64,000 nt of DNA from an uncultured Acidimicrobiales bacterium (GTDB lineage Bacteria; Actinomycetota; Acidimicrobiia; Acidimicrobiales; CAWCAL01): positions 1,312,925 to 1,376,924 of the forward strand of contig CAVOFR010000007.1 of assembly GCA_963695075.1 (NCBI GenBank), in the 5' to 3' direction. How positions within the stretch are numbered: position 1 is the stretch's first letter; each line of letters opens with the position of its first letter. Positions 53-22,608 of this stretch are shown here, one piece after another. The notes beneath the pieces were generated by a model. That model made no database searches and was not told the DNA's origin. It saw nothing but the letters and a program-made list of their open reading frames with translations. The position numbers were made by a program, and so were the translations under genes.

Positions 53-183
53 CTGTGTCCGCTCCCTCCGGAGTTCGCACCATCCGGCGCCAACCGTGGT
101 ATAGCCGCGGCTCGACGACCCATTCCACTATCGTCTCGCTCCAAGACAGGCGATCGGATTGCGGCTGGGGGGAACGGCTGACC

Positions 184-2522: not shown

Positions 2523-2556
2523 CCCGACGGTCCGGACCAGGCAACGAGGGCGCCGT

Positions 2557-6726: not shown

Positions 6727-6853
6727 GCAAGGGATGGTACGTGACGCCTCTGGCCGGGCCACCGTCGATCAGGAGGGTCGGTCGGCCGGAATCACGCGGG
6801 GGAGGTCGCATACCGCCGCCCAGGCTGGACTTCGGGCTCGGCTGGGGGTGACA

Positions 6854-6867
6854 ATGGAGATCTCCAT
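6854..6867. promoter_or_regulatory. Perfect 14-bp palindrome ATGGAGATCTCCAT in a divergent intergenic region
   Basis: Read directly. Overlaps -10-like GACAAT (6850-6855). Single copy, so the function is unproven. Confidence 0.4.
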
Positions 6868-6873
6868 AAACGT

Positions 6874-7560
6874 ATGGCGTCAGCGGGGGAAGTACACGTG
6901 ACTGCGGACAGCGGCCGGAAGGCCACCGGAAACGGTGAATCGAAGACGACGAACGCCGCCACGCGGCTGTACCTCGTGCGACACGGCACCACGATGCTGA
7001 ATCGCCAGAACCGTTATCGCGGCCGTCGCGACGTCCCCCTGGACGAGGGCGGTTGGAGCGACGCATGGAGTGCCGCCAACGAGCTCGAGGGCAAGGGGAT
7101 CTCGGCGGTCTACGCCAGTCCGTTGCGACGGGCCCGCGACACTGCTCGCGTCGTCGCCGACGGCGTCGGGGTCGATCACGTGCAGGACCATCCGGGCCTG
7201 GTCAACCTCGACTACGGCGAATGGGATGCGTTCACCGCCGATGAGGCGAAGGCGCACGATCCCGTCGCCTTCGAGGGCTACCAGAACTTCTCTCCGGGCG
7301 CGGCGTGCCCCGGCGCCGAGACGCTCGACGACGCGGCGCAGCGCATCCTGCTCACCCTCCGGGTCATGGCACTCATGCATCCGGGCGAGTCCATCGCCGC
7401 GGTGTCCCACGCCGCCATGGTGCGCCTCGTCATCACCGTCGGTGGCAACCGTCCCCGCAACGAGTGGCGCTACGCGCTGCCCAACGGCTCGGTGACGGTG
7501 CTCGATCTCATGCCGGACCGCCTCGAGATCCTGCGTATCCCGGTCGCCACCGCCGGCTGA
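6874..7560 (+). CDS. Histidine phosphatase (phosphoglycerate-mutase-like) family protein
   Basis: LYLVRHG, YASPLRRARDTA, DYGEWD, VSHAA. Alternative GTG start at 6898. Confidence 0.85.
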   Translation: MASAGEVHVTADSGRKATGNGESKTTNAATRLYLVRHGTTMLNRQNRYRGRRDVPLDEGGWSDAWSAANELEGKGISAVYASPLRRARDTARVVADGVGVDHVQDHPGLVNLDYGEWDAFTADEAKAHDPVAFEGYQNFSPGAACPGAETLDDAAQRILLTLRVMALMHPGESIAAVSHAAMVRLVITVGGNRPRNEWRYALPNGSVTVLDLMPDRLEILRIPVATAG

Positions 7561-7593
7561 TAGCAGCCGGTCTCGGGAGGACGACACGTACAC

Positions 7594-9510
7594 GTGCAGT
7601 CACTCGCAACCGACGACGTCACACTGCTCGCGGCCCAGGTCGCGCTGCTCCTGGCGGCAGCGATCGTGTTCGGCGCGATCGCCCGTCGGCTCGGGCAACC
7701 GTCCGTACTCGGCCACATCGCGGCCGGCGTGCTCATCGGGCCCTCGGGCCTGAGCCAGCTCGACTGGGTCGCCGAGAACATCTTCCCGCCGGAACGGTCG
7801 GCACCGCTCGCAGGGCTCGCCGCGATCGCGGCGCTGATGGTTCTGGCGGTCACCGGATTCCACACCGATCCGAAGTTGGTGCGTCGATGGAGCCGTCGCG
7901 TACCTGCGCTGTCGGTTGCGAGCCTTCTCATCCCGCTCGCGGCCGGGGCCGGGCTCGGCGTCGTTCTGCCGGCGGAATACCGCGGACCCGAGGCGACGGC
8001 GGGTGTGTTCGTTCTCTTCATGGCGATCGCCCTGGCGATCTCGTCGCCTCCGGTGATCTCGCGGGTCCTGGCCGATGCCGGACTGATCCGGCGCGACTTC
8101 GCCCAGATCGTCCTCGCGGTCGCCATGAGCAACGACGTGGCAGGCTGGGTCCTCCTCGGGGTGGTCATATCCCTGACCGGTACCGGTGCGTTCCCCGTCG
8201 GCGATCTCGTCCTGGCAGTCGCTTCGCTCGTAGCGCTCGGCGTGGTGGCGGTGAAATGGGGCCCGAGGGTCGTGAGCGCCATGCTCGAGCGATCCCGCCG
8301 AATCGGCATGACGCACGGGCCGGTCGCGGTTGCGCTCGTGATCATCTTCGCCGTGTCGGCGTTCACGAACCTGACCGGTATCGAGGCGGTGCTCGGGGCG
8401 TTCGTCGCGGCCCTCGTGATACGGAGCAGCAAGGGGGCGACCCGCGACGTCGAGCCGGCGGTGAGCGCCATGACCGAGAGCTTCTTCGCCCCGATCTTCT
8501 TCACGGTGGCCGGACTCCGGGTCGATCTCGGAGCGCTCTTCGAGCCCGACGTGGCCTTTTGGTGCCTGGTCGCCGTCGCGATCGCGAGCGTGACCAAGCT
8601 CATCGGGGCGGGCGGGGTGGCGCGGTTGACCGGGTCGAGCCGTCGGGAGGCCGCCGCGATCGGAGTCGGGCTCAACATCCGGGGGTCGCTCGAGGTCGTC
8701 CTCGCCAGCGTCGGTCTTGCCATCGGTGTGCTCAACTCCACCTCGTACACGATCGTCGTCGTCGTCGCCGTGGCCACCTCGGCGATCGCACCGCCGTTGC
8801 TCCGTCGCATCACCGACGGCTGGTATGGCGACGACAACGAGAAGCAGCGGCTCCTGCGTGAACGTCTCCAGGCCGCGACCGAGAGCCTGCCGGACGACGC
8901 ACCGTTCGTGCTGGGCTCGACCGGCGCGTCGGTCATCGCCGACGCGGTCTGGGTCGGGCTCGAGCCGGTCGCCCGCCATACCGACGGAGCGGCCGTGGTC
9001 ATCGAGGTCGAAACCGACCTGGAACCTGCTTCTGCATGGCTCGAGCCCGGTGATGGCCCGGTCCTGCTGGTCTCCGGGGTGCGTCGGCTCCCGCCGTCGG
9101 AGGGGTCCGTGCTGGTTCCGGTCGTCTCGTCGGAGACTTCGGCCACGGCCATCGAGGTGGCGGCGCGAATAGCCCTGGCGTCGCGGGCCGACCTCACGCT
9201 CGTCCATCTCCGCCGTCCGGGCGGATCGGTCGCTTCGGTCGAACGAGCGGCCGGGTGGGCGTCGACGATGGGGCTCACCGCCCAGATCGCGATCCACGAC
9301 GTGCCGTCGGTCAGCGACGATGCCCTGGCCGGCGTTCTCCAGGAGATGATCCGACCCGGCGATGTGGTCGTGGCCGGTACCACGGCGCACCTCGGCGACG
9401 GCGGTATCGAACTGGGCGGCTGCGCCGATCGGCTCTTTCGCGCTGCGGCGCCGCTGATCGCGGTCGTGCCGGCCGCGTCGGGACCGTTCTCCCCGCCGGA
9501 CTGGGCCTGA
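7594..9510 (+). CDS. Cation:proton antiporter (CPA2-like) with C-terminal soluble, USP-like region
   Basis: About 12 TM segments, LGQPSVLGHIAAGVLIGP, AMSNDVAGW, FAPIFF, GLNIRG. C-terminal SVLVPV...LTLVHL resembles USP folds. Confidence 0.8.
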   Translation: MQSLATDDVTLLAAQVALLLAAAIVFGAIARRLGQPSVLGHIAAGVLIGPSGLSQLDWVAENIFPPERSAPLAGLAAIAALMVLAVTGFHTDPKLVRRWSRRVPALSVASLLIPLAAGAGLGVVLPAEYRGPEATAGVFVLFMAIALAISSPPVISRVLADAGLIRRDFAQIVLAVAMSNDVAGWVLLGVVISLTGTGAFPVGDLVLAVASLVALGVVAVKWGPRVVSAMLERSRRIGMTHGPVAVALVIIFAVSAFTNLTGIEAVLGAFVAALVIRSSKGATRDVEPAVSAMTESFFAPIFFTVAGLRVDLGALFEPDVAFWCLVAVAIASVTKLIGAGGVARLTGSSRREAAAIGVGLNIRGSLEVVLASVGLAIGVLNSTSYTIVVVVAVATSAIAPPLLRRITDGWYGDDNEKQRLLRERLQAATESLPDDAPFVLGSTGASVIADAVWVGLEPVARHTDGAAVVIEVETDLEPASAWLEPGDGPVLLVSGVRRLPPSEGSVLVPVVSSETSATAIEVAARIALASRADLTLVHLRRPGGSVASVERAAGWASTMGLTAQIAIHDVPSVSDDALAGVLQEMIRPGDVVVAGTTAHLGDGGIELGGCADRLFRAAAPLIAVVPAASGPFSPPDWA

Positions 9511-9559
9511 CCGGACCACACGCCCTCGGGTCGGGAGGACGCCCGCTATCGTCGCCGGC

Positions 9560-10132
9560 ATGGATCATTTCGGACCCCTTGCACAGCTCGCCGGCGAATG
9601 GGAAGGCTCCAGAGGCCTCGACGTCTCCTATCACCATGCCGATGACCAGGTGGGCGACACGCCCTACCGGGAGGCCGTCAGCTTCAAGCCGTTCGGTCCC
9701 GTCGACAACGGCAGCCAGAAGCTCTACGGGCTCGACTACCGCATGGCTGCCTGGCGGGAGGGTGAAGAGGATCCGTTCCACACCGAGGTGGGGTACTGGA
9801 CCTGGTGCGCCGGCCTCGGCCATGTCATGCGGGGCTTCGTGATCCCGCGCGCGTCGGTCATCCTGGCCGGGGGAGAGGCGGCCCCCGACGCCACCGAGTT
9901 CACCCTCAGAGCCACCGCCGGCGACGAGGTCTACGGGATCTCCAGCAATCCCTATCTTGCTGATAAGGCCCGTTGCATCAGCTACGAGGTGACGATCACC
10001 GTCGAGGGTGACGAGTTCACCTACGAGGAGGACTCGGTCCTCGAGATGGCCGAACTGGACGAGGTGCTGCACCACACGGATCGCAACACGCTGAAGCGGG
10101 TCCAGACCTACGATCTCCCCCCGCCCGAATAG
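9560..10132 (+). CDS. Nitrobindin/FABP-like heme-binding beta-barrel protein
   Basis: GPLAQLAGEWEG, YGLDY, FHTEVGYW, C-terminal HHTDRNTL with the putative heme His. -10-like TATCGT 7 nt before ATG. Confidence 0.75.
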   Translation: MDHFGPLAQLAGEWEGSRGLDVSYHHADDQVGDTPYREAVSFKPFGPVDNGSQKLYGLDYRMAAWREGEEDPFHTEVGYWTWCAGLGHVMRGFVIPRASVILAGGEAAPDATEFTLRATAGDEVYGISSNPYLADKARCISYEVTITVEGDEFTYEEDSVLEMAELDEVLHHTDRNTLKRVQTYDLPPPE

Positions 10133-10205: not shown

Positions 10206-12509
10206 TTACTCGTACTTGACGCCCATCTCCCGGAGGACGTCGATCAGCTCGGTCGGCGCATCGGGAGCGAAGGCTCCGGGCTCGTAGCTCACCTCCCGGA
10301 GGGTGCCTGTCCAGGGGAACGGTCCGTGCCGACGGTAGATGGCCCAGTCGACGGGTGAGCGACGATCGATGCCCACGTCGATCCCCTCGAACGGCGCCAT
10401 GGTCAGGAAGAGCGGAAAGCCGGCGCCCGAGGCTCGTTCCTCGTCATCGACCGACAGGGCGAAGTCCCACAGGTTCGAGCCCGGAGCGGTGGCGACCAGC
10501 GTGATGGTCGCGGCCCCCGCGGCGAGCGTTCCACCGTCGAGTCGTCTCAGGCGGTGGCCGTCGTTGTGCGTGAAGGTCAGGACGTCGTCCTCGACCGACA
10601 GGAGGTAGCCGCCGCCCTGATCTCCGTGGGCGACCAGGACGCCCCGGTCGCCCGAAGCGAAGTCCAACCGGACGGTGCAGGTGAACCCGCGCCCCCAGAT
10701 CAGCCGCTGGCTGCGCCACCGTTCGAGCGTCGGCGTGCCGGGGGCGATCGTCACCGGCTGCTCGTACTGTTCGACCCACCCCGGGCGGTAGATGTGCTTG
10801 AGGTTCGTCCCCTCCTCGAGGGGGTAGACCTGGTTCTCCCACGCCGCCCGTTCCCAGGCCGCGGCGAGCTCGGTCACCTTGTCGGGGTGCTCCCGGGCCA
10901 GGTCGTGGCACTCGGTCGGATCGTTGACCAGGTCGTACAGCTCCCACTCGTGGTCACCGAACTCGGTGAGGGGCTGGTGCACCGTGACGATCACCCAACC
11001 GTCGCGGTAATAGCCGCGGTGTCCCCACATCTCGTAGTACTGCTCGGGGTGGACCGACGCAGCGTCGGGGTCGCCGATGGTCGGAGTGAAGCTCGATCCG
11101 GCCAGTGGCTGGAGCGGCAGTCCCTGGCGTTCGGTGGGGGCATCGATCCCGCAGAGCTCCAGCAGGGTGGGGTAGAGGTCGGTGACGTAGGTGTATTGCG
11201 AGCGCAACGCGCCCGCATCGGTGATCCGGTCGGGCCAGGAGACGATCAGCGGCACCTGGTGGCCGCCGGCGTGGGTGTTGATCTTGTAGAGCCGGAACGG
11301 CGTGTTGCATGCCATGGCCCAGCCGCGGGGGAAGTGCGGGATGGTCTGCGGTCCGCCGATCTGGTCGAGCCGATCGTGATCGGCCTCCCACTCGGGTTCG
11401 CCCAGGAGGTGGGTGTAGTAGCTGGAGGTGCCCCACTCCTCGCCTTCGCGTGACGCGCCGTTGTCGGAGGTGAAGACGATGATCGTGTTGTCCAGCTCAC
11501 CGAGCTGGTCCAGCGCATCGACCAGGCGGCCGAAGTTCCAGTCGACGTTGTCGACCATCGCGGCGTAGACCGCCATGTAGCGGGCGAACAGCTCCTGCTG
11601 CCGGGGTGCGAGATCCTCCCAGGGGCTCACGTCGTGGGCCTGCTCGCTGTTGCGCGGGGGGAGTTCGGTGCCATCGGCGATGATCCCGTTCGCCACCATG
11701 CGTCGATAGCGCTCGAGCCTCAGCTGGTCCCAGCCCTCTCGGTAGCGGTCGGCGTGGCGTTCGATGTCGCCCGACTTGGCCTGGAGCGGGGCGTGCACGG
11801 CGCCGTGGGCGAAGTAGCAGAAGAAGGGTTTGGTCGGATTGGACGCCTTCAGCGCTCGGATCCGTGTGATCGCTTCGTCCGTGATGTCGTCGGTGAAGTA
11901 GTAGTCGTCCGGGTAGCGGTCGGTCTCGACCTGGGTGTTGTCACGAACGAGCCGGTGCGGTTGATGGAAGTTCGTGAAGCCGTCGAGAATGCCGTAGAAC
12001 GAGTCGAACCCGCGCTGGATCGGCCACGAGCTCCGGTCGCCGGCATGGGCCAGCTCGCTGTCCTTGGACAGGTGCCACTTGCCGACCATGAACGTGGCGT
12101 AGCCGTTGGAGCGGAAGGTCTCGGCCAGCGTCGAGGTGTGCTCGGACAACTCCATGGCATAGCCGGGGAAACCGGGGTCGGAGTGGGCGACGTGGCCCAC
12201 CCCCGCCGCATGGGCGTTGATGCCGGTGAGGAGTGCGGCCCTCGTGGGTGAGCACATCGGCGTGACGTGGAAGTCGGTGTAGCGGAGTCCGCGCTCGGCG
12301 AGTCGGTCGAGGTGCGGGGTGGGGATCTCTCCCCCGTAGCAGCCGAGGTCGGAGTAGCCGAGGTCGTCGGCCAGCATCACGATGACGTTGGGTGCGCCCT
12401 CCGGAGCGTCGGAGCGGTCGGGCCACCAGGACTCCGAACCAGCGAAAGTGCGACCCACCCGTCCACCGAAGTCGGCGTAGGCGGCCAGATCGTCCGCAGC
12501 TTCGGGCAT
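10206..12509 (-). CDS. Arylsulfatase (Cys-type formylglycine sulfatase)
   Basis: MLADDLG, CSPTRAALLTG (CxPxR), GKWHL, GAVHAPLQ, SDNG. SD GGAG before ATG 12509. No signal peptide seen. Confidence 0.92.
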   Translation of the reverse strand: MPEAADDLAAYADFGGRVGRTFAGSESWWPDRSDAPEGAPNVIVMLADDLGYSDLGCYGGEIPTPHLDRLAERGLRYTDFHVTPMCSPTRAALLTGINAHAAGVGHVAHSDPGFPGYAMELSEHTSTLAETFRSNGYATFMVGKWHLSKDSELAHAGDRSSWPIQRGFDSFYGILDGFTNFHQPHRLVRDNTQVETDRYPDDYYFTDDITDEAITRIRALKASNPTKPFFCYFAHGAVHAPLQAKSGDIERHADRYREGWDQLRLERYRRMVANGIIADGTELPPRNSEQAHDVSPWEDLAPRQQELFARYMAVYAAMVDNVDWNFGRLVDALDQLGELDNTIIVFTSDNGASREGEEWGTSSYYTHLLGEPEWEADHDRLDQIGGPQTIPHFPRGWAMACNTPFRLYKINTHAGGHQVPLIVSWPDRITDAGALRSQYTYVTDLYPTLLELCGIDAPTERQGLPLQPLAGSSFTPTIGDPDAASVHPEQYYEMWGHRGYYRDGWVIVTVHQPLTEFGDHEWELYDLVNDPTECHDLAREHPDKVTELAAAWERAAWENQVYPLEEGTNLKHIYRPGWVEQYEQPVTIAPGTPTLERWRSQRLIWGRGFTCTVRLDFASGDRGVLVAHGDQGGGYLLSVEDDVLTFTHNDGHRLRRLDGGTLAAGAATITLVATAPGSNLWDFALSVDDEERASGAGFPLFLTMAPFEGIDVGIDRRSPVDWAIYRRHGPFPWTGTLREVSYEPGAFAPDAPTELIDVLREMGVKYE

Positions 12510-12585
12510 TGAGCACTCCAATGACAGGGTCGGGGGCCGATGGGTGATGGCCATACTCGCGCGCAGTCGACCCCCGGAGCGGTCC

Positions 12586-13701
12586 TTGTCAACCGAGCGC
12601 CGCCGCGACGTCCTGATCGTCTACGGGACGCGGCCCGAACTCATCAAGCTGGCCGAGATCACCCGCCTTCTGGGCGATCGCGCCCGCACGGTGCACACCG
12701 GTCAGCACTACGACGCCGGACTGCACGACGACATCGTCGCTTCCCTGGGAATGCGTGACCCCGATGCCGTCCTCGACGTCGGCGGTCGGTCGCGGGCCGG
12801 CCAGATCGCAGGTGTGCTCGAAGGCCTCGATGCCCTGCTCGAGGAGGCCCGGCCGGCAGCCATCGTCGTCCAGGGCGATACGAATTCGGCCCTGGCCGGT
12901 GGACTCGCCGGCAACGCCCGTGAAGTACCGGTCGTGCACGTCGAGGCCGGTTTGCGATCCCACGACCGCCGAATGCCCGAGGAGCACAACCGGGTCCTGC
13001 TCGATCATCTGGCCGACCTCTGCCTGGCCCCGACCGAGGTGAGCAGAGCCAACCTCCTGGCCGAGGGGATCGAGCACCATCGCATCGTCGTCAGCGGCAA
13101 CACGGTCGTGGAGGCGGTCCAGTCGCGTCTCCCCTGTCCCGATACCCGGCGAGACCTCCTGGATCGCCTGGGGCTGAAGGCCGACGGGTACGTGCTGGTG
13201 ACCCTGCACCGGCCGGAGAACGTCGATGACCCCGCGGTGTACCGGCGCATTCTCGACGAGCTGGTCGCCCTGGATCTGCCCGTCGTGTTGCCCCTCCATC
13301 CACGGTCGCGTGAGCGCTTCGATCGATTCGGGCTCTGCGAGTCGGCCGGTTCGATCCGCCTGATCGAGCCACTGGACTACGCCGACTTCCTGGCGGCGGC
13401 GAAGGAAGCCGCTCTCCTGGTCTCCGATTCGGGCGGCGTGCAGGAAGAGGCGAGCGTGCTGAAACGACCGGTGGTGGTGGTGCGCCGTTCGACCGAGCGA
13501 CCCGAGGTGCTCGGGTCCTTCGCCGACCTCGTCGCCCCTGGCCCTGGGATCGGTGAGGCGGCGCGGTACCGGCTCGCCGGCGACCGTGCCGCCCTGGCGG
13601 AGGTGCCCTCGCCCTACGGGGACGGTACCGCGTCGGCGCTGTCGGTGTCGGCCATCGAGCGGCTGATCGACCGACCGGCGGATTCCTCATTACCGCGGTA
13701 G
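12586..13701 (+). CDS. wecB: Non-hydrolysing UDP-GlcNAc 2-epimerase family (WecB/WbpI-like)
   Basis: YGTRPELIK, QGDT, HVEAGLRS, PEEHNR, TLHRPEN, DSGGVQEEA, PYGDG. Start TTG 12586 (alternative 12544). Confidence 0.9.
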   Translation: MSTERRRDVLIVYGTRPELIKLAEITRLLGDRARTVHTGQHYDAGLHDDIVASLGMRDPDAVLDVGGRSRAGQIAGVLEGLDALLEEARPAAIVVQGDTNSALAGGLAGNAREVPVVHVEAGLRSHDRRMPEEHNRVLLDHLADLCLAPTEVSRANLLAEGIEHHRIVVSGNTVVEAVQSRLPCPDTRRDLLDRLGLKADGYVLVTLHRPENVDDPAVYRRILDELVALDLPVVLPLHPRSRERFDRFGLCESAGSIRLIEPLDYADFLAAAKEAALLVSDSGGVQEEASVLKRPVVVVRRSTERPEVLGSFADLVAPGPGIGEAARYRLAGDRAALAEVPSPYGDGTASALSVSAIERLIDRPADSSLPR

Positions 13702-13804
13702 GCGCGGTCGATGGTGAGGGATCGAGATGCGACTTCACACCGACGACCTCACTGCTTCGCGGGCGACCCCTTCGTCGGCCGCCCGCTCGATCGAGGAGGG
13801 CACA

Positions 13805-15031
13805 GTGACAAGATCCGAGACTCCCGTTCCGGTCTTTCCGAGCGATCAGGACGCAAGCGGTCGCTGGTTGGGCGATGAGGAGCTCGATCGTCTGGGTCAG
13901 GTCATCGCTTCCGGCACGCTGACCGCGACGAAGGGCAGACAGACCAGGGCCCTCGAAGCCGAATTCGCCGACCGGATCGGTGTGAGCCACGCCATCGCCT
14001 GTTCGTCGGGAACCGCGGCGCTGCACACGGCGGTAGCCGCTCTCGATCCCGAGCCGGGCGACGAGATAGTCACGACACCGATCACCGACATGGGAGCGAT
14101 CACTCCGATTCTCTATCAGGGTGCCATCCCGGTGTTCGCCGACGTCGACTCCGACACCGGCAACGTGACGGCGGCCACGATCGAGGATCGGCTCACCGAG
14201 CGCACTCGGGCGGTGATGGTGACCCACCTGTTCGGGAACCCCTGCGAGATGGACGCCATCGTCGACCTGTTGGCCGAGCGGGACATCCCGGTGATCGAGG
14301 ACTGCGCCCAGGCCTATGGGGCCCACGTCGGAAAGCGTCCGGTCGGAGCGATCGGCAACATCGGGTGTTTCAGTCTCCAACAGGGCAAGCACATCACGAC
14401 CGGCGAGGGGGGCCTCGTCGTGACCGATGACGAGGCGCTCGGTCGCCGAGCTCGCGTCTTCGTCAACAAGGGGTGGCCCTATGGTGAGGCCGGGCCCGAC
14501 CACGAGTTCCTCGCCCTCAACTATCGGCTCACCGAGCTCCAGGCCTGCGTGGCCCGAGCCCAGCTCGTGAAGCTCGACGACATGCTCGGTGCCCGAACCC
14601 GGTCCACGGCGCGTTTCGCCGAGCTGATCTCGGGGATCCCCGGGATGGCGGCCCCGATCGTGGCCGACGACAGCACCCACTCGTACTGGCGCTACTGCCT
14701 TCTGATCGACGATGCCGTGATCCCCGGAGGTCCGGAAGCTCTCGCCGAGCAGCTTTCCGCCCACGGGGTTGCCTCGGCCCCGAGGTACATCAAGAAGCCC
14801 GCCTTCGAATGCCGGGTCCTGGCCGAACAACGCACCTTCGGCGATTCGCGCTGGCCCTTCACGCTGGCCAAGCCCGAAGCGGTCGACTACGACCCCCACC
14901 GCTTCCCGGGTGTCTATGCCGCCCTGGACCAGATGCTGGTCCTCGGTTGGAACGAGGGCATGACCGAACAGCATGCCGAAGCTCTCGCCACCGCGCTCCG
15001 CGCCGCGGCGACGGAGGTGTCTCCCCGATGA
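13805..15031 (+). CDS. DegT/DnrJ/EryC1/StrS PLP sugar aminotransferase
   Basis: SSGTAALH, EDCAQA, FSLQQGKHITTGEGG (PLP Lys), NYRLTELQA. SD GAGGAGG before GTG 13805. Confidence 0.92.
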   Translation: MTRSETPVPVFPSDQDASGRWLGDEELDRLGQVIASGTLTATKGRQTRALEAEFADRIGVSHAIACSSGTAALHTAVAALDPEPGDEIVTTPITDMGAITPILYQGAIPVFADVDSDTGNVTAATIEDRLTERTRAVMVTHLFGNPCEMDAIVDLLAERDIPVIEDCAQAYGAHVGKRPVGAIGNIGCFSLQQGKHITTGEGGLVVTDDEALGRRARVFVNKGWPYGEAGPDHEFLALNYRLTELQACVARAQLVKLDDMLGARTRSTARFAELISGIPGMAAPIVADDSTHSYWRYCLLIDDAVIPGGPEALAEQLSAHGVASAPRYIKKPAFECRVLAEQRTFGDSRWPFTLAKPEAVDYDPHRFPGVYAALDQMLVLGWNEGMTEQHAEALATALRAAATEVSPR

Positions 15032-16032
15032 GTCCCATCGAGATCGGGCTCGTCGGCGTCGGCCGCATCGCCCAGACCTATCTGGAGGTGCTGGACACGC
15101 TCGACGACTTCCAGCTGGTCGGTGTCTCCGACGTGAGCCCCGACGCGGTCCACGCGGTCTCGCAGGCCCACGACGTTCCGGGATTCGACGCCGTCGAGCG
15201 CATGATGAAAGAGGCCCGTCCCGAGGCGGTGCTCCTCTGCACGCCCCCGTCGACCCACGCCCACCTCGCGTGCTCTGCGCTCCGGATGGGGGCGGCGGTG
15301 CTGTGCGAGAAGCCGTTGGCCATCGACCTCCCCGCGGCCCGGAGCATGATCGAGACGGCGGTCGAAGCCGGTGGGCTGCTGTCGATGGCGTCGAAGTTCA
15401 GGTTCGTCGAGGATGTCCAGGTCGCTCGTCAGATGGTGGAGCGCGGCGATCTCGGCGAGATCCTGCTGTTCAACAACTCCTTCACCGGATTCGTCGACAT
15501 GGCCGGCCGGTGGAACAGCGACCCCAGTCGCAGCGGTGGAGGCGTCATCATCGACAACGGCACCCACTCGGTGGACATCGTCCGCTGGCTCTTCGGGCCG
15601 ATCACCGAGGTGCTCGCGGTCGAAGGACGCCGGGCCCAACCGATTCCCGTGGAGGACACGGCTCAACTGTTCGTACGGACCGGGACCGGGGTGCTGGGCA
15701 GCATCGACCTGTCGTGGTCGCTCGACAAGTCCGCCCCGCACTACATCGAGATCTTCGGAACACGAGGAACCGTGACCCTGGGTTTCGAGCAGTCCCGCTA
15801 CACGCTCGGAGGCGGCGAGTGGATCGACTTCGGATCCGGGTACAGGAAGGCGGCGGCCTTCACCGGCCAGCTCGAGAACTTCGCGGCCGCTATCCGCGGT
15901 GAGGCCGCGACCTTGGTGACGGCAGAAGACGCGGTCGCCAGCGTCCGCGTCGTCGAGTCGGCCTATTCGTCGCTCCGCGAGTCGCGCTGGGTTCCGGTCG
16001 CCGGCCAGCGGTTCGCCCTGGCCGGAGTCTGA
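15028..16032 (+). CDS. Gfo/Idh/MocA NAD-dependent oxidoreductase (WbpB-like sugar 3-dehydrogenase candidate)
   Basis: GLVGVGRIA, LCEKPL, GGGVIIDNGTHSVD. ATGA overlap. Confidence 0.88.
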   Translation: MSPIEIGLVGVGRIAQTYLEVLDTLDDFQLVGVSDVSPDAVHAVSQAHDVPGFDAVERMMKEARPEAVLLCTPPSTHAHLACSALRMGAAVLCEKPLAIDLPAARSMIETAVEAGGLLSMASKFRFVEDVQVARQMVERGDLGEILLFNNSFTGFVDMAGRWNSDPSRSGGGVIIDNGTHSVDIVRWLFGPITEVLAVEGRRAQPIPVEDTAQLFVRTGTGVLGSIDLSWSLDKSAPHYIEIFGTRGTVTLGFEQSRYTLGGGEWIDFGSGYRKAAAFTGQLENFAAAIRGEAATLVTAEDAVASVRVVESAYSSLRESRWVPVAGQRFALAGV

Positions 16033-16041
16033 TCCGAGAAC

Positions 16042-16662
16042 GTGGTGGCACCCCGTATCCACCCGACGGCTCTCGTCGAGGACGGGGTCGAGCTCGGCGA
16101 TGGAACGAGCGTGTGGGATCACGCGCATCTGCGAGGTCCGAGTCGCATCGGACGCAACTGCATCATCGGAGGCAAGACATACGTGGCCTATGACGTCGAG
16201 CTCGGCGACATGGTCAAGCTCAACGCCTTCGTATACGTGTGCGCGGCGGTGACGATCGAGGAGGGCGTGATGGTGGGCGCGCACACGGCCTTCACGAACG
16301 ACAGGTTTCCGCGCGCAAGCGACGCCGAACTGACCGAGCTCCGGAGCTCGGAGCCCGACGGGCACACGAGACCCACTTTCGTACGTCGAGGTGCGACGCT
16401 CGGGGCGCGGGTGGTCGTGGGTTCCGAGCTCGAGATCGGCGCCTGGTCGATGGTGGGAATGGGATCGGTCGTGACCGCTTCGGTGCCGGCTCATCACCTC
16501 GTGGTGGGGAATCCGGCGCGCACGATCGCGTACGTGTGTCGTTGCGGAGAGCCGTTCCGCCGCCGAAGCGATCCCGACGTCGAGTCCGCGGTCTGCCGGT
16601 CGTGCGGACGCGGCTACCGGGTCGAGCGGGGCCGCGTCGACGAACTGGGGGTCCCGGCATGA
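16042..16662 (+). CDS. Hexapeptide-repeat N-acetyltransferase (WbpD/WlbB-like) with C-terminal Cys cluster
   Basis: IHPTALVE, hexapeptide repeats, FTNDRFPRA, VVGNPAR, CRC...CRSC. Confidence 0.88.
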   Translation: MVAPRIHPTALVEDGVELGDGTSVWDHAHLRGPSRIGRNCIIGGKTYVAYDVELGDMVKLNAFVYVCAAVTIEEGVMVGAHTAFTNDRFPRASDAELTELRSSEPDGHTRPTFVRRGATLGARVVVGSELEIGAWSMVGMGSVVTASVPAHHLVVGNPARTIAYVCRCGEPFRRRSDPDVESAVCRSCGRGYRVERGRVDELGVPA

Positions 16663-17981
16663 GCAGCTGGGCCGTGGTGGGCGGTGGCCTGTTGGGGATG
16701 GAGATGGCTCGACAAGCGGCAACCGACGGCCATGAGATCACGCTGTTCGAAGCATCCGACGAGCTGGGCGGGCTGGCCTCGTCCTGGGAGCTCGGCGGGG
16801 TGCGGTGGGATCGGCACTACCACGTCGTGACACCCACCGATGATCGGACCGAGGACCTCCTCGCCGAGCTGGATCTGACGTTGCGGTGGGCCACCACTCG
16901 CACCGGGTGCTACGGCAACGGCCGCCACCACTCGGTTTCGAACGTCGGCGAGTTCCTGAGATTCCCGCTGTTGAACCCGCTCGACAAGGTGCGTCTCGCC
17001 GCGACGATGGTGTACGCCTCGCGCCTCACCGACGGCACGAAGCTCAGCTCCATCCCGGTCGAGGACTGGGTGGTGCGACTGAGTGGACGGCGCGTGACCG
17101 ATCGGTTCTGGCTCCCGTTGCTCCGAGCCAAGCTCGGGGACCGGTACCGGGACACGTCGGCCACCTTCCTGTGGACCATCATCCGGCGGCTCTATGCCGC
17201 TCGGACCTCGGGCCGGCGGACCGAGCAGCTCGGTTACGTACCGGGCGGCTACGCCACGATCATCGACGCGATGGCCGCCGACCTCGCCGGTGAGGACATC
17301 GATGTGAGACTCGGTGCTCCCGTTCTGACCGTGCGCTCGACCGCCGGGCCGGTGATCGTCGAAACGCCGTCCTCCTCGGAGCGATTCGATCAGGTCGTGG
17401 TGACGGCCGCCGCCCCGCAGGCGGCTCGGATGATAGACGGGCTGAGCGACGCCGAGACCGGAGCGCTCGAGCAGGTGCCGTACATGGGTGTCGTCTGCGC
17501 GTCGGTCGTGCTGACCCGCCCGCTCACGGACTTCTACGTGACGAACCTCATCGACGAGACCCCCTTCACCGGCGTGATCGAGATGACCGCCCTGATCGAC
17601 CCGGCGGAAGTCGGCGGGTACCACCTGGTGTATCTACCTCGCTACGTGGCCTCGGATGATCCGCTCCTGGACGCGACCGACGAAGAGATCGAGCGGTCCT
17701 TCCTCGCCGGCCTGAAGCGACTGCACCCTGATCTGGAGGCCGAGCACGTCGTCGCGTTCGCGGTGTCGCGACCGAGGTACGTGCTGCCGGTGCCCGTCAT
17801 CGGGTACGCCGATCGCGTTCCGCCCATGGACACGTCGGTCCCGGGTGTCTGGACCGTCAATTCGTCGCAGATCATCGACGGCACGCTCAACGTCGACGAA
17901 ACCCTGCTGCTGGCCGATCGGGCCATGGACCGGATCCGGGCGGTCGTATCGAGAACGAACCCACAGGAGGCTGTGTCGTGA
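16659..17981 (+). CDS. FAD-dependent oxidoreductase (protoporphyrinogen/amine-oxidase-like fold)
   Basis: VVGGGLLG, EASDELGGL, DRHYH. ATGA overlap at 16659. Confidence 0.8.
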   Translation: MSSWAVVGGGLLGMEMARQAATDGHEITLFEASDELGGLASSWELGGVRWDRHYHVVTPTDDRTEDLLAELDLTLRWATTRTGCYGNGRHHSVSNVGEFLRFPLLNPLDKVRLAATMVYASRLTDGTKLSSIPVEDWVVRLSGRRVTDRFWLPLLRAKLGDRYRDTSATFLWTIIRRLYAARTSGRRTEQLGYVPGGYATIIDAMAADLAGEDIDVRLGAPVLTVRSTAGPVIVETPSSSERFDQVVVTAAAPQAARMIDGLSDAETGALEQVPYMGVVCASVVLTRPLTDFYVTNLIDETPFTGVIEMTALIDPAEVGGYHLVYLPRYVASDDPLLDATDEEIERSFLAGLKRLHPDLEAEHVVAFAVSRPRYVLPVPVIGYADRVPPMDTSVPGVWTVNSSQIIDGTLNVDETLLLADRAMDRIRAVVSRTNPQEAVS

Positions 17982-18976
17982 ACGGATCGGTGGCCAGTCT
18001 CTCTCTGGATCTCGACAACGAATGGGCCTATCTGAAGGTGCACGGCGACCGCGGGTGGGAATCGTTGCCGTCGTACCTCGACGTCGTCGTTCCCCGAGCC
18101 CTGGGCGTGCTCGACGATCTCGGCTTGAGCGCGACGTGGTTCGTCGTCGGGCTCGACGCAGCGCAGGATCGCAACCGGGAGGCTCTCGCATCGATCAGTA
18201 CTGCAGGCCACGAGATCGGCAACCACAGCCACCGACACGAGCCCTGGCTGCACCTCTACGGTCCGGCCGAGCTCCGGTCCGAGCTGGATCAGGCCGAGGA
18301 GGCCATCGAGTCGGCCACCGGTGAACGGCCCGTCGGCTTCCGGGGCCCCGGCTACAGCCTCTCGCCCACCACGCTCCGGGAGCTCCAGCGGCGCGGCTAC
18401 CGCTACGACGCTTCGACCCTCCCCACCGTGATCGGGCCGCTCGCCCGGGCCTACTACCTGCGTTCAGCAGGGATGGACGACGACGAACGACAGCAACGCT
18501 CGGCGCTGTTCGGTTCGGTCTCCGACGGCTTCCGCTCCCTTCGGCCCTATCGGTGGGCTCTCCCGGACGGAACACTGTTGGAGATACCGGTCAGCACGGT
18601 ACCGATGGCGAGGGTCCCGTTCCATCTCAGCTACGTGTTGTACCTCGCCGAACGGTCGACCCGACTGGCGCTGCGGTACTTCCGCACCGCGCTGCGGCTC
18701 TGCCGCGCTCGGAACGTGGAGCCGTCGTTGCTGCTCCACCCGCTCGACTTCCTCGGCCCGAAGGACGTGGACTCGCTGGCCTTCTTCCCCGGCATGGCCA
18801 TGCCGGCCCGGCTCAAGGTCGAGGTGGTCACCGCTGCACTGCAGCAATTCGCCGCCTGGTACGAGGTCGGCACGATGAGTCAGCACGCCGACGCCCAGGA
18901 GGGGCGCCCGGTACCCCTGCGCGCCCCCCGGTTCGACTGCGCTCGGCGTGAGATCCGACGGGTTGTCGCGACATGA
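17978..18976 (+). CDS. Polysaccharide deacetylase (CE4/NodB-like) family protein
   Basis: SLSLDLD, ATWFVVG, EIGNHSHRH, GFRGPG, YDAS, LHPLDF. GTGA overlap. Confidence 0.85.
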   Translation: MNGSVASLSLDLDNEWAYLKVHGDRGWESLPSYLDVVVPRALGVLDDLGLSATWFVVGLDAAQDRNREALASISTAGHEIGNHSHRHEPWLHLYGPAELRSELDQAEEAIESATGERPVGFRGPGYSLSPTTLRELQRRGYRYDASTLPTVIGPLARAYYLRSAGMDDDERQQRSALFGSVSDGFRSLRPYRWALPDGTLLEIPVSTVPMARVPFHLSYVLYLAERSTRLALRYFRTALRLCRARNVEPSLLLHPLDFLGPKDVDSLAFFPGMAMPARLKVEVVTAALQQFAAWYEVGTMSQHADAQEGRPVPLRAPRFDCARREIRRVVAT

Positions 18977-20064
18977 CGACGGCCGCAGCCGTCGACCTGC
19001 CGGACCTGACCGAGGTTCGGGACCGGCCGATGGTGTCCGTCGTCATTCCGGCGTTCAACGAGGAACTCATCATCGAGGAGACCCTCGCCGCGATCTCCGA
19101 CGAGCTGGGTCGGCTGGAGGCGGGCTTCCGCTGGGAGATACTGATCGTCGACGACGGTTCGACCGACCAGACCCCGGCCCTGGTCGCCGCTGCCGCGGTG
19201 GAGGAGCCACGTATCCGGCTTCTACGGCACAAGGTCAACTTCAACATCGGACAGGCGCTGCAGTACGCGTTCCGCAACTGCCGGGGCGACTTCATCGTCA
19301 CGATGGACGCCGACCTCAGCTACGACACCGGGCACATCCCGAGGCTGCTCCACGCGCTGCTCGTCGAGCGGGCGAAGGTCGTGGTCGCGTCGCCCTACGC
19401 GAAGGGTGGCGACGTCACCGGCGTGCCCTGGCGCCGGCGGGTGTTGAGCCGGGCGGCCAATCGGTTCCTCTCCCGTGTCGCACCGGTCGACGTCACGACG
19501 ATGACCGGTCTGGTCCGCGCCTACGACCGACGGTTCCTCGACAACCTGGATCTCCGGCTGATGGACGGATCGATCAACACCGAGATCGTCTACAAAGCGA
19601 ATCTCCTGGGAGCCCGAATCGTCGAGATCCCCGCCCACCTCGACTGGACGGGCCAGGAAGAGCGCAACGCGTCGAGAGAAAGGCCCAGCGTGACCGGGCT
19701 CTCGAGGGCACTCCTGTTGGCGGGGATCCAGTTCCGGCCGGTGCCATGGTTCCTCGGATTCGGCCTCTTCCTACTCCTCGTTTCGGCCGCGCTCGGAACC
19801 GTCGCCGCGGTAGCCGCGTTCGATGAGCTCGGCGGCGCAGGATTCAGCTTCTCCAACATCAACCACGCGATCTCACACGCCTATGAGCGGCTCCCGCACG
19901 TGTTCCTCTTCGGAGTGATCACCATGTTGTTCGGGGCCGTCGTGCTGTCGCTCGGCGTGATCGCCGCGGTGACCCGCCGCTACTTCCACGAGCTGTTCCA
20001 TGCCTCGACCACCCTGCTCCGTCGGATGGAAGCTCTGGAGCAGCAGCTGCGCGCCAGGTCGTGA
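18973..20064 (+). CDS. GT2 glycosyltransferase with C-terminal TM helices (polyprenyl-phosphate GT, ArnC/GtrB/Ppm-like)
   Basis: VVIPAFNEE, IVDDGSTD, TMDAD (DxD), two C-terminal hydrophobic helices. Confidence 0.88.
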   Translation: MTTAAAVDLPDLTEVRDRPMVSVVIPAFNEELIIEETLAAISDELGRLEAGFRWEILIVDDGSTDQTPALVAAAAVEEPRIRLLRHKVNFNIGQALQYAFRNCRGDFIVTMDADLSYDTGHIPRLLHALLVERAKVVVASPYAKGGDVTGVPWRRRVLSRAANRFLSRVAPVDVTTMTGLVRAYDRRFLDNLDLRLMDGSINTEIVYKANLLGARIVEIPAHLDWTGQEERNASRERPSVTGLSRALLLAGIQFRPVPWFLGFGLFLLLVSAALGTVAAVAAFDELGGAGFSFSNINHAISHAYERLPHVFLFGVITMLFGAVVLSLGVIAAVTRRYFHELFHASTTLLRRMEALEQQLRARS

Positions 20065-21560
20065 GCCCGACCCGCGACCCGAGCGAGCCGGCAACGGTCG
20101 GCCCGCTGGATCGGACCGAACGTCGGGTCCTCGTCGGCCTCGGCACCGTCGCACTTCTGACCGCCGCGGTCGGAATCGGGGCCAAGAGCTTCTGGTTCGA
20201 CGAGGGCTACAGCGCGGAGTTGGCCCGCCGACCGGGCGGGGAATGGTGGGGACTGGTCTGGTCCCAGGAAGGCGGGGCGGTCCTCCACGCGCTCGTTCTG
20301 AAGCCCTGGTCGATGGTGTCCGACAGCGATGCGTGGCTCCGGTTCCTTTCGGTCCCCTTCTCGGTGGGGCTGGTGGTGTTGACCTACTTCGTCGGGCGGA
20401 GGGTGATCGGCCGGTCCGCCTGGGCCGCAGCCCTGGCGTTGGCCGTCAACGGCGCGTTCGTGCAGTACGCGCAGGAGGCACGGTCGTACGCTCTCGCGTC
20501 GTGTCTGGTGCTCGGTTCGACACTCGCGTTCCTGAGAGCGGTCGAGGAACCGAGCCGACGACGTCTCGTCGCCTATGCGCTGCTCGCCGCCGCCTGCCCA
20601 CTCGGGCACCTGTACACGGCTCCGTTCGTGGTGGCGCAGGGCCTCACGCTCCTCGTGTTCGGCGGTCGATCACGACCCTGGGGCCGCTGGATCGCGACCG
20701 GAGTCTCGATCGGCCTGGCATGGATGAGCCTCCTCGTGGCGGTGTTGCTCGCCGGCTCGGGCGATGCCCAGCCGGTCGACGAACCGGGAGACGGTGTGAG
20801 CACTCTGGCCTTCGTGCCGCGTCAGTTCCTGGCCCCGTCCCGGATACTCGGATGGATCCTCCTCGTCCTGGTCGGGCTGTGGGTGGCCCGGGTCGTGGGA
20901 ATGCTCGTTCGTAGGGGTGGATCGGACTCGGGGATCGTCCAGGTCCTCCCGCCGGCCATGGTGGCCGTGCCACTCCTGACAGGGCTGGTGATGCCGCAGA
21001 TCGACCTGGACACGAGCCGGTACTTCCTTCCGGTTCTGCCGTTCCTCCTGATCATGGCGGTGGGCACCGTGGCGTCGGTCTCGGATCGACGCCTGGCAAT
21101 CGCCGGAATGGTGGCGGTCGTGGCGATCTCGATGACCGGCTTGGTGCACTGGCACGCCCGGGTCGAGAAGATGGACGCGCGCACGTGGACAGACCTGCTG
21201 GCGGATGGAGTCGAGACCGGTGATCGGGTCCTGTTCGACGACACGTACGGCCGGATAGTCACCGAGCACTACCTCCACCAGGGTGACACGGACCTGAGCC
21301 GGGCCGAGCCCCTTCGTCCCTCCGAACCGTTCGGGAGCTACTTCTGGGATCCATCCCGCGACGGGATCGGCGACTGCATCCTCGACGAGCTGGATCTGGA
21401 CCGGGCCGTCTCGGTTCCGGGGAGGACCTGGATCGTCCTCGCCGTTCCCGAAGACTGCTGGTCGACGGAACGGGTGTTGGACACGATAGACAGCACGGGA
21501 AGGGCAGTCCTGGGCCGGACCGATCTCGACGGACCGGCCACTCTGCTCCTCGTTGGATGA
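20061..21560 (+). CDS. GT-C fold membrane glycosyltransferase (GT39/GT83, PMT/ArnT-like)
   Basis: SFWFDEGYS, YAQEARSYAL, about 11-12 TM segments, C-terminal extracytoplasmic domain. Confidence 0.8.
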   Translation: MSPTRDPSEPATVGPLDRTERRVLVGLGTVALLTAAVGIGAKSFWFDEGYSAELARRPGGEWWGLVWSQEGGAVLHALVLKPWSMVSDSDAWLRFLSVPFSVGLVVLTYFVGRRVIGRSAWAAALALAVNGAFVQYAQEARSYALASCLVLGSTLAFLRAVEEPSRRRLVAYALLAAACPLGHLYTAPFVVAQGLTLLVFGGRSRPWGRWIATGVSIGLAWMSLLVAVLLAGSGDAQPVDEPGDGVSTLAFVPRQFLAPSRILGWILLVLVGLWVARVVGMLVRRGGSDSGIVQVLPPAMVAVPLLTGLVMPQIDLDTSRYFLPVLPFLLIMAVGTVASVSDRRLAIAGMVAVVAISMTGLVHWHARVEKMDARTWTDLLADGVETGDRVLFDDTYGRIVTEHYLHQGDTDLSRAEPLRPSEPFGSYFWDPSRDGIGDCILDELDLDRAVSVPGRTWIVLAVPEDCWSTERVLDTIDSTGRAVLGRTDLDGPATLLLVG

Positions 21561-21585
21561 CCCGAGCGCACAGGGGACGAGCGCC

Positions 21586-22608
21586 GTGCAGTACACCAGG
21601 TTGGGCTCGACCGGTATGGAGGTCTCGCGGCTGTGCCTCGGGTGCATGAGCTACGGCTCGCCCGAGTGGCGGCCCTGGGTGCTCGACCGCGATGGGGCCG
21701 AGCCCTTCTTCCGCCGTGCCGTAGAGGCCGGCATCAACTTCTTCGACACCGCCGACATGTACTCGAACGGCATCAGCGAGGAGGTGACCGGACACTGGCT
21801 GCGCGAGCTCACCGCCCGGGACGAGATCGTCGTCGCCACCAAGGTGTTCTTCCCGATGTCGGATCGCCCCAATTCGGGCGGCCTGTCCCGCAAGCACATC
21901 CAGCAGGCGTGCGAGGCCAGCCTGCGCAGGCTCGACGTGGACGTGATCGACCTCTATCAGTTGCACCGGCTCGATCCGAACACGCCCCTCGAGGAGACCC
22001 TGGCGGCGCTGGACCAACTGGTTCAGTCCGGGAAGGTGCGCCACATCGGCGTGAGCTCCTCGTTCGCATGGGAGGTGATGCGGGCGCTGGCGATCTCGGA
22101 TCGCAACGGGTGGGCCCGCTTCGTCTCGATGCAGAACCACTACAACCTGATCTATCGCGAGGAGGAGCGCGAGATGATCCCGCTGTGCGAGACCGAAGGC
22201 CTGTCCTGCATCCCGTGGTCACCGTTGGCGCGCGGCATGCTGGCCGCCACCAGGTCCGAGCTCGGTGACGAATCCACGACCCGATCGGCGACCGACGGAC
22301 TCGACCAGATCCTCTATGACGAGCCGTCCGACTGGGACGTCGTCGAGGCGGTGAAGGCCGTGGCCGCCGAGCGGGGCGACAAGCCGGCCCAGGTCGCGCT
22401 GGCGTGGCTGATGAACCGCCCGACGGTGGCTGCGCCGATCGTCGGCGCCACGAAGCCGACCCACCTCGACGACGCCATCGCCGCGGTCGACATCGACCTG
22501 TCCGCCGAGGAGATCGTGCTCCTCGAGGCGCCCTATAGGCCCCACGGGGTCAAGGGAATCTGGGGGTCGGCCGTGCACGAGCAGGTCACGGGGCACACGC
22601 CGTCGTGA
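21586..22608 (+). CDS. Aldo/keto reductase
   Basis: SRLCLGCM, FFDTADMY, VATK, DLYQLH, PWSPLARG, PIVGATK (D/Y/K/H tetrad). Alternative start 21553. Confidence 0.92.
   Translation: MQYTRLGSTGMEVSRLCLGCMSYGSPEWRPWVLDRDGAEPFFRRAVEAGINFFDTADMYSNGISEEVTGHWLRELTARDEIVVATKVFFPMSDRPNSGGLSRKHIQQACEASLRRLDVDVIDLYQLHRLDPNTPLEETLAALDQLVQSGKVRHIGVSSSFAWEVMRALAISDRNGWARFVSMQNHYNLIYREEEREMIPLCETEGLSCIPWSPLARGMLAATRSELGDESTTRSATDGLDQILYDEPSDWDVVEAVKAVAAERGDKPAQVALAWLMNRPTVAAPIVGATKPTHLDDAIAAVDIDLSAEEIVLLEAPYRPHGVKGIWGSAVHEQVTGHTPS

Follow-up and report, generated by a model that had tools for sequence, protein, structure and literature searches.

We examined a 64,000-nucleotide stretch of DNA (the window) from an uncultured Acidimicrobiales bacterium and, within it, an operon of eight co-directional genes at positions 12586-21560. 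On balance, we consider it probable that this operon encodes a lipid-carrier glycosylation route for a 2,3-diamino sugar that works in the manner of the Arn pathway. The operon joins genes for the synthesis of a nucleotide sugar to genes of the kind that load a sugar on polyprenyl phosphate, deacetylate it and transfer it, and adds to them a conserved flavoprotein. Gene families were assigned by Pfam and NCBIfam profiles, and the eight genes are as follows.

12586..13701, + strand: non-hydrolysing UDP-sugar 2-epimerase of the WecB/WbpI type (Epimerase_2/WecB; TIGR00236 280 bits, cut-off 210)
13727..15031, + strand: pyridoxal-phosphate-dependent sugar aminotransferase, DegT (PF01041 E 2e-84)
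15028..16032, + strand: Gfo/Idh/MocA NAD-dependent sugar dehydrogenase, Gfo (three GFO_IDH_MocA domains)
16042..16662, + strand: left-handed beta-helix N-acetyltransferase of the 3-amino-sugar class, AcT (Hexapep)
16659..17981, + strand: flavin adenine dinucleotide (FAD) flavoprotein of the NF005560/PRK07233 family (Amino_oxidase; 431.5 bits, cut-off 252)
17978..18976, + strand: cytoplasmic CE4 (NodB-fold) de-N-acetylase (Polysacc_deac_1, PF01522 E 2e-19)
18973..20064, + strand: GT2 of the polyprenyl-phosphate glycosyltransferase type, DPM1/ArnC/GtrB-like (Glycos_transf_2; two C-terminal transmembrane helices)
20061..21560, + strand: GT-C fold membrane glycosyltransferase of 499 amino acids, distantly PMT_2/ArnT-like (PMT_2 sub-threshold, E 0.005; assigned with AlphaFold2 and Foldseek)

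This gene list had been proposed earlier from the sequence alone (hereafter the original prediction). The Pfam and NCBIfam families agree with it, and the fold of the last gene was recognised with AlphaFold2 and Foldseek. All five of the 4-nt overlaps that it claimed are present in the sequence: ATGA at the DegT/Gfo, AcT/FAD and CE4/GT2 junctions, and GTGA at FAD/CE4 and GT2/GT-C. The two remaining intergenic gaps measure 25 and 9 nt. The open reading frame of the epimerase extends upstream to a GTG at 12544, and the TTG at 12586 matches WecB N-termini better, which makes it the likely start. A scan of the 12-24 kb region for promoters and terminators was uninformative. The operon holds no Wzx, Wzy or ABC exporter gene, as had been stated; the ABC genes found at 55-4262, at the window's left edge, are those of a binding-protein-dependent importer.

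The GT2 protein is closest to enzymes that glycosylate polyprenyl phosphates, among them ArnC, DPMS, PpgS and AglJ. Its best matches in the PDB are ArnC (9HWJ) and the Pyrococcus DPMS (5MLZ), at 66 bits each, with GtrB at 40 bits, and it is 31% identical to E. coli ArnC over 217 amino acids (E 7e-22). PpgS is its top NCBIfam match (NF058614, 70 bits, cut-off 370), and the ArnC model NF007986 gives 69.6 bits against a cut-off of 529, so that the protein is a homologue of ArnC and not an equivalog. The two C-terminal transmembrane segments predicted for it are like those of ArnC and GtrB and agree with the membrane anchor of the original prediction. The CE4 protein retains D11/D13, H83-S-x-x-H87, R122-G-P-G and H254, each kept in at least 72 of 74 orthologues, and has neither an N-terminal hydrophobic segment nor a signal peptide. 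Judged from these motifs, it is predicted to be an active cytoplasmic enzyme; given the lack of an export signal, it would work on the cytoplasmic side of the membrane, like ArnD. Pairwise BLAST between this protein and E. coli ArnD is not significant, and a profile of the 74 orthologues matches ArnD with E 2e-7 and 18.8 bits in a database of seven sequences.

The protein encoded by the last gene has only a few close relatives (57-66% identity), after which the matches drop to 26-28%. Its AlphaFold2 model (mean predicted local distance difference test score, pLDDT, 85) has ArnT (5F15, family GT83) as its best Foldseek match (E 2.5e-6, TM-score 0.55), and ranks 1-35 are all GT-C enzymes. A D47-E48 motif follows the first transmembrane helix, with position 47 acidic in 47 of 56 homologues, and a profile search matches E. 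coli ArnT with E 5e-10, here too in a database of seven sequences. The modelled protein thus combines the polytopic fold and the acidic motif in the first extracytoplasmic loop that mark the GT-C superfamily.

A GT2 and a CE4 are also the typical pair of poly-N-acetylglucosamine (PNAG) and Nod-factor systems. The operon could accordingly be read as a synthase-type polysaccharide locus, in which a processive GT2 makes a PNAG- or chitin-like polymer of a diacetamido sugar, the CE4 partly deacetylates this polymer as PgaB, IcaB or NodB do, and the polytopic protein is a polymerase, ligase or exporter. The GT2 does match the NCBIfam models for PgaC (53 bits) and NodC (35 bits), far under cut-off, and a minimal locus described below, L004, adjoins Wzy_C and Bac_transf genes. 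However, the best relatives of the GT2 are ArnC and DPMS, it carries two C-terminal transmembrane helices, and no QxxRW motif was seen in its translation. The CE4 lacks a signal peptide or anchor, the polytopic protein has the fold of ArnT and other GT-C enzymes, and Wzy, Wzx and Bac_transf genes are rare around related operons. A polymer synthase is for these reasons the least probable of the readings that we considered, and we give it very little weight.

The genes upstream of the flavoprotein encode the predicted nucleotide-sugar enzymes. The best PDB match of the dehydrogenase is WlbA (3Q2K, 99 bits), with 3Q2I also among the top matches, and the model for the archaeal UDP-GlcNAc 3-dehydrogenase gives 119 bits, under its cut-off; by these matches the enzyme is a probable UDP-GlcNAc(A) 3-dehydrogenase. 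The acetyltransferase is most similar to WlbB (3MQG, 98 bits), a WxcM-like protein and QdtC, which are 3-N-acetyltransferases, and the C4-type VioB reaches 37 bits. The aminotransferase is 34% identical to E. coli ArnB (E 6e-46), scores 176 bits with the ArnB equivalog NF008658 (cut-off 631), and is 55-63% identical to its counterparts in related operons of other phyla. The best solved relative of the epimerase, at 250 bits, is 8SXV, the UDP-2,3-diacetamido-2,3-dideoxy-glucuronic acid 2-epimerase of T. thermophilus (PMC10622841). Lys17 of the Thermus enzyme is conserved in E. coli WecB too. Only about 31 of the 83 related loci have an epimerase gene, which suggests that the enzyme is accessory.

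These assignments fit one part of the original prediction's term "Wbp-like", namely the predicted steps of 3-oxidation, 3-amination, 3-N-acetylation and 2-epimerisation, but not the other: no WbpA-type C6 dehydrogenase (UDP-GlcNAc 6-dehydrogenase) was found in the operon or in the 64-kb window. A nucleoside diphosphate (NDP)-sugar 6-dehydrogenase lies near related operons in only 6 of 86 loci. On both counts, the sugar is probably neutral GlcNAc3NAc or ManNAc3NAc rather than a uronic acid. A uronic acid is the less probable product, for which the host could still provide: three NDP-sugar dehydrogenase genes occur elsewhere in its genome, and its two UDP-ManNAc/GlcNAc-dehydrogenase-like genes lie on other contigs. 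In two Acidimicrobiia loci (L012 and L053), the Gfo/DegT/AcT set is different and more divergent (23-40% identity), and a gene for an NDP-sugar 6-dehydrogenase stands between those for Gfo and the epimerase; by their gene content these loci appear to be a true Wbp-like, uronic-acid variant.

The data show which genes are present and how tightly they are coupled, to which folds and families they belong, that the catalytic motifs are unbroken and that the synteny is kept across loci; on this basis we infer every chemical step, the order of GT2 loading and deacetylation, the carrier and the acceptor, as follows. In the cytoplasm, the Gfo/Idh/MocA enzyme would oxidise C3 of UDP-GlcNAc (or, less likely, UDP-GlcNAcA), DegT would transaminate the resulting 3-keto group, and the WlbB-like acetyltransferase would cap the new amine to give UDP-GlcNAc3NAc, which the WecB-type enzyme could optionally epimerise at C2 to the manno form. 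The membrane-anchored GT2 would move the fully N-acetylated sugar to polyprenyl phosphate, and the cytoplasmic CE4 would take off one acetyl group and so expose an amine. The lipid-linked sugar would be flipped by a protein encoded outside the operon. The GT-C would finally pass it to an extracytoplasmic acceptor, which may be a wall polymer, a glycolipid or a protein.

We compared the operon with related loci using tblastn of the window proteins against 86 loci (numbered with the prefix L) and clustering of all their open reading frames; presence was counted over the 83 loci that contain the flavoprotein. Species-representative genomes contain at least 583 loci with this gene. They span more than 10 phyla, mostly diderm, among which are Acidobacteriota, Cyanobacteriota, Planctomycetota, Myxococcota, Pseudomonadota, Verrucomicrobiota, Eremiobacterota and Actinomycetota. 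The operon had been framed as an actinobacterial peculiarity; it turns out to form one branch of a cassette whose carriers belong mainly to diderm phyla. The cassette keeps the same gene order across loci at 45-63% identity. Its collinear core, measured from the flavoprotein, consists of DegT at about -2.9 kb, Gfo at -1.7 kb, AcT at -0.65 kb and CE4 at +1.35 kb. CE4 accompanies the flavoprotein in 74 of the 83 loci, AcT in 69, Gfo in 68, GT2 in 66 and DegT in 62. Close relatives on two long contigs (L001 and L002) keep the whole operon together with a downstream aldo-keto reductase. No description of the cassette emerged from literature searches on PRK07233, on the combination of genes and on GlcNAc3NAc together with undecaprenyl.

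The arrangement of these loci supports a lipid-carrier relay beyond homology. Most diderm loci have the GT2 upstream and fused to a second CE4/DUF3473 domain, in a protein of about 560-600 amino acids without transmembrane helices; in Actinomycetota loci the GT2 has 350-390 amino acids and two transmembrane helices, directly follows the CE4, and is 42-48% identical to that of the window. Since such fusions occur in most loci, deacetylation appears to be tied to the GT2 step. In six minimal loci (L004, L008, L023, L035, L057 and L085), the flavoprotein and the CE4 are accompanied by the CE4-GT2 fusion alone, and nucleotide-sugar genes are missing; a few loci have the flavoprotein and CE4 alone. 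An iterated hidden Markov model (HMM) started from the GT-C of the window found PMT_2-type homologues within 10 kb of the cassette in 47 loci. Most of them follow it immediately and in the same orientation, and some loci have two copies. Where the flanks are complete (50 loci), a GT-C homologue is present in 31, and either a GT-C or another polytopic protein of 430-720 amino acids in 42. The other membrane proteins near the cassette, 87 in 82 loci, include 5 Wzy_C, 4 Polysacc_synt and 3 Bac_transf proteins; Wzx and Wzy are thus not a consistent part of orthologous loci. Alongside the fusions, the trio that persists without nucleotide-sugar genes and the recurring GT-C, the predicted cytoplasmic location of the CE4 also argues for the relay.

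In L046 (positions 1744-3417), which represents about 40 fusions, the fused CE4 domain reads H-E-I-A-T-K-G-Y-Q-H at the site where the standalone enzyme reads H-E-I-G-N-H-S-H-R-H. The first metal-binding His is replaced by Lys, and the fused domain may be inactive or mechanistically different. The flippase-like LPG_synthase_TM, found in 5 of 82 loci, is together with Wzy_C and GT2 the most frequent of the remaining membrane neighbours, and EamA proteins occur near the cassette in 3 loci. Both are possible flippase candidates in those lineages; neither was found in the window.

No other gene accompanies the CE4 as consistently as that of the flavoprotein, which is retained in the minimal loci as well. 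The AlphaFold2 model of the flavoprotein (pLDDT 89) is closest to protoporphyrinogen oxidase (2IVD, TM-score 0.79), phytoene desaturase (5MOG, 0.80) and amine oxidases. The first two of these are monotopic membrane enzymes that act on lipophilic substrates. The protein has more than 4000 homologues at about 50-55% identity; the NCBI name of NF005560/PRK07233 is merely "hypothetical protein", and no mention of the family was found in a literature search. A role like that of UDP-galactopyranose mutase was considered and rejected, as no mutase is among the 50 best folds. The tight partnership with the CE4 and the persistence in minimal loci point to a role at the lipid-linked stage. The flavoprotein would probably work at the membrane, with the lipid-linked sugar or the carrier lipid as its substrate. 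Candidate reactions are the oxidation of the unmasked amine or of a ring hydroxyl, following a logic like that of DprE1, or an alteration of the carrier lipid.

We tentatively raise the further idea, which we regard as possible but somewhat doubtful, that the PRK07233 flavoprotein and the CE4 together perform an undescribed step on polyprenyl-phosphate-linked amino sugars. If this is so, the cassette would represent a distinct and widespread pathway of envelope decoration, present in at least 583 species genomes and more than 10 phyla. In Acidimicrobiales, the acceptor of the modified diamino sugar would be a wall polymer or protein of a monoderm cell, and not lipid A.

In another reading, the flavoprotein, GT2 and CE4 modify a lipid that is not a carrier at all. 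The amino sugar would then stay, as the end product, on a hopanoid, carotenoid or other isoprenoid glycolipid, for which the flavoprotein prepares the lipid in the manner of HpnE or CrtI. Glycosylation of hopanoids followed by deacetylation is known from HpnI and HpnK, a precedent for such a route. After its own family, the best named NCBIfam match of the flavoprotein is HpnE, at 82 bits, and the GT2 has weak matches to CruG and HpnB. All three matches are, however, far under cut-off. A GT-C, which is a user of lipid-phosphate donors, recurs beside the cassette, and no squalene, hopene or carotenoid genes were seen in the operon or among its recurrent neighbours. We consider modification of such a lipid very unlikely.

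A stronger alternative, although still an unlikely one in our judgement, is that the substrate of both the CE4 and the flavoprotein is the soluble UDP-sugar and that the GT2 and GT-C merely carry the finished product. The CE4 could, for example, remove the 2-N-acetyl group of UDP-GlcNAc3NAc, and the flavoprotein could oxidise the freed amine or a hydroxyl. The sugar would then not be deprotected on the lipid in the manner of Arn, and it would not have to be cationic in its final form. Both the flavoprotein and the CE4 lack transmembrane segments, and the amine-oxidase-type fold of the flavoprotein makes oxidation of an amine freed by the CE4 chemically plausible. A UDP-sugar substrate also fits the layout of several loci: the pair stands between the acetyltransferase and DegT genes in L006, L042 and L062, in the order Gfo-AcT-FAD-CE4-DegT, and is without a nearby GT2 in L005, L071 and L073. 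On the other side, the CE4-GT2 fusions of most loci connect a deacetylase with the lipid-loading enzyme, the minimal loci drop every nucleotide-sugar gene and retain the GT2, flavoprotein and CE4, and the nearest folds of the flavoprotein are those of the monotopic enzymes with lipophilic substrates.

The layouts of these six loci are among several observations that weigh against an Arn-like relay. The Arn scheme offers no role for the flavoprotein. The best PDB matches of DegT are C4 and not C3 aminotransferases (7L7X, which is Pcryo_0638, perosamine synthases and ArnB); it scores 112 bits with WbpE as against 175-180 bits with C4 aminotransferases. According to the paper describing 7L7X, sequence is a poor predictor of regiochemistry in this family (PMC8040287). 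The operon contains no flippase gene (GtrA, ArnE/F or Wzx), and the two GtrA genes of the host genome lie on other contigs than the operon. The ArnB, ArnC and PpgS equivalog models are all missed by wide margins, and ArnD and ArnT are matched only through profiles or fold. Among the curated equivalog cut-offs that could be tested, the operon passes only those of WecB and of the unnamed PRK07233 family.

Weighing both sides, we retain the relay as the best reading. The original prediction had proposed a route in which the sugar is protected, loaded, deprotected and transferred; the likeness to ArnC/DPMS and ArnT, the intact cytoplasmic CE4, the fusions, the recurring GT-C and the rarity of Wzx/Wzy all speak for it, but the scheme leaves without a place the very protein that accompanies the CE4 most faithfully. 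Placement by HMM among the Arn, PpgS or Wbp systems failed, since none of their equivalog models was reached. The operon is thus Arn-like in its working and not a member of that system: it works like Arn, Lgm, Flm-NaxD, PpgS-Rv3779 and GacI/J/L and belongs to none of them.

The host assignment of the original prediction, an actinobacterium lacking lipid A, was confirmed. The nearest named relatives of the host SecY, at 73-76% identity, are all metagenome-assembled genomes of Acidimicrobiales or Acidimicrobiia, and in the flavoprotein tree the window copy groups with an Acidimicrobiaceae sequence (Shimodaira-Hasegawa-like support 97). LpxC was not found in the host genome (4.65 Mb, 96% complete) by a search that detects it in four of four lipopolysaccharide-making control genomes; therefore, the acceptor cannot be lipid A. 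In the host phylum the PRK07233 family is distributed patchily: 14 of 301 genomes have a protein scoring above the cut-off, and no such protein occurs in the 14 genomes sampled from the host's own order.

With the Arn pathway (E. coli arnBCADTEF, or PmrHFIJKLM, which places L-Ara4N on lipid A), the operon as read here would share the logic of oxidation and transamination of a UDP-sugar, acyl masking of the amine, GT2 loading on polyprenyl phosphate, unmasking by a CE4 fold and transfer by a GT-C. It differs from it in that the mask would be an acetyl group added by the left-handed beta-helix transferase and not a formyl group, the oxidation is assigned to a Gfo/Idh/MocA dehydrogenase and not to the short-chain dehydrogenase/reductase decarboxylase of ArnA, and the sugar would be a hexose with amines at C2 and C3 in place of a 4-aminopentose. 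The operon also adds the conserved flavoprotein, and its host lacks lipid A. Domains of ArnA (formyltransferase and UDP-GlcA decarboxylase) and ArnE/F are missing from the operon, and BLAST gave no significant matches to E. coli ArnA, ArnE or ArnF.

Acetyl protection has a precedent in the LgmABCD system of Bordetella and FlmF2/NaxD/FlmK of Francisella, in which undecaprenyl phosphate receives an N-acetylhexosamine that is deacetylated while lipid-linked and then transferred by an ArnT-like GT-C. The acetyl group serves there as the protecting group, as we propose here. Unlike in the operon, the acceptor in these systems is lipid A, the sugar is plain GlcNAc or GalNAc, no flavoprotein takes part, and NaxD is a deacetylase of the YdjC family and not a CE4.

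For Gram-positive bacteria, relays of a GT2 and a GT-C have been described in GacI/GacJ/GacL and PpgS/Rv3632 (bioRxiv 10.1101/180810). In these monoderm systems, PpgS (Rv3631)/Rv3632/Rv3779 of M. tuberculosis and GacI/GacJ/GacL of S. pyogenes, the GT2 makes a polyprenyl-phosphate-linked N-acetylhexosamine and the GT-C moves the single sugar onto a wall polysaccharide; the mycobacterial system puts GalN on arabinogalactan. They differ in lacking nucleotide-sugar tailoring genes, a co-encoded CE4 and a flavoprotein; the operon, for its part, has no DUF2304 partner, and the host has one in a separate module (L100, below). A Wbp-like route is reported in Actinobacteria from the utr genes for Streptomyces teichuronic acid (bioRxiv 10.1101/2025.04.24.650519). 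With the Wbp and Wlb systems for UDP-ManNAc3NAcA (P. aeruginosa WbpABEDI, Bordetella WlbABCD) the operon shares homology, in that WlbA, WlbB and the diacetamido-glucuronic acid 2-epimerase are its best relatives. In contrast to them, it has no WbpA-type dehydrogenase, WbpE is not its closest aminotransferase, and its product would enter the GT2/GT-C relay and not a Wzy-dependent O-antigen or a TarS-like transferase.

Single cationic sugars on the envelope are a main route to resistance against cationic peptides and polymyxin, and they shape receptors for phages and toxins. The cassette is common in phyla of soil and freshwater (Acidobacteriota, Planctomycetota, Cyanobacteriota, Myxococcota and Acidimicrobiia) and has no characterised member. 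It would offer a new acetyl-protected diamino-sugar donor, contains a flavoenzyme family of more than 4000 members to which no reaction is assigned, and could be used to find out which structures an Arn-type relay modifies when its host makes no lipid A. As the operon is compact, heterologous expression can address this question directly.

Two genes flank the operon.

21553..22608, + strand: aldo-keto reductase (PF00248 E 2e-78; lineage-specific neighbour)
10206..12554, - strand: sulfatase, divergent from the epimerase (PF00884 E 2e-62; context only)

The aldo-keto reductase directly follows the GT-C in the close relatives L001 and L002 and is not part of the cassette of other phyla; it may or may not belong to the pathway. 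Its relatives have 340 amino acids, and the true start may lie about 11 codons further in, which would remove the overlap with the GT-C gene. We dropped as speculation the idea that it is the reductase half of an epimerase pair like DprE1/DprE2, as the gene is kept only in the two closest relatives. The position of the sulfatase relative to the epimerase is kept in L001 and L002. In L002, the flavoprotein is called as pieces of 44 and 384 amino acids (6595-7916) and the GT2 as pieces of 319 and 45 (8908-10004); these split genes are frameshifts, from assembly errors or from gene decay.

Several accessory genes accompany the cassette in other lineages. Sulfotransfer_3 genes lie in or beside it in 7 loci of 4 phyla (L009, L041, L043, L053, L054, L055 and L056), and sulfatases are near it in L006, L041, L042 and L056. 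The window contains a sulfotransferase and ATP sulfurylase pair at 4274-6762 on the - strand, 6 kb upstream of the operon. In some lineages the sugar or its acceptor may be sulfated. An S-adenosylmethionine-dependent methyltransferase (Methyltransf_23) stands just after the CE4 or the GT-C in 26 loci, and a second Amino_oxidase paralogue is often found in Actinomycetota cassettes (L044, L061, L063 and L069); neither was found in the window.

The same genome holds a second module (L100:7892-11839, corresponding to G000:C8:340.9-345 kb), in which a flavoprotein of the family NF005548/PRK07208 (784 bits) and a PMT_2 GT-C occur with a GT2 lacking transmembrane segments (best match PpgS, 86 bits) and a small DUF2304 membrane protein of the GacJ/Rv3632 type. 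We considered this module as support for a link between flavoproteins and lipid carriers and dropped it, because the adjacency is missing in four of four other Actinomycetota genomes that have the flavoprotein. Elsewhere in the genome, the match to RecA (L106; G000:C3:151382-153254) falls in pieces about 1 kb apart within one open frame of 691 amino acids, which looks like a RecA intein.

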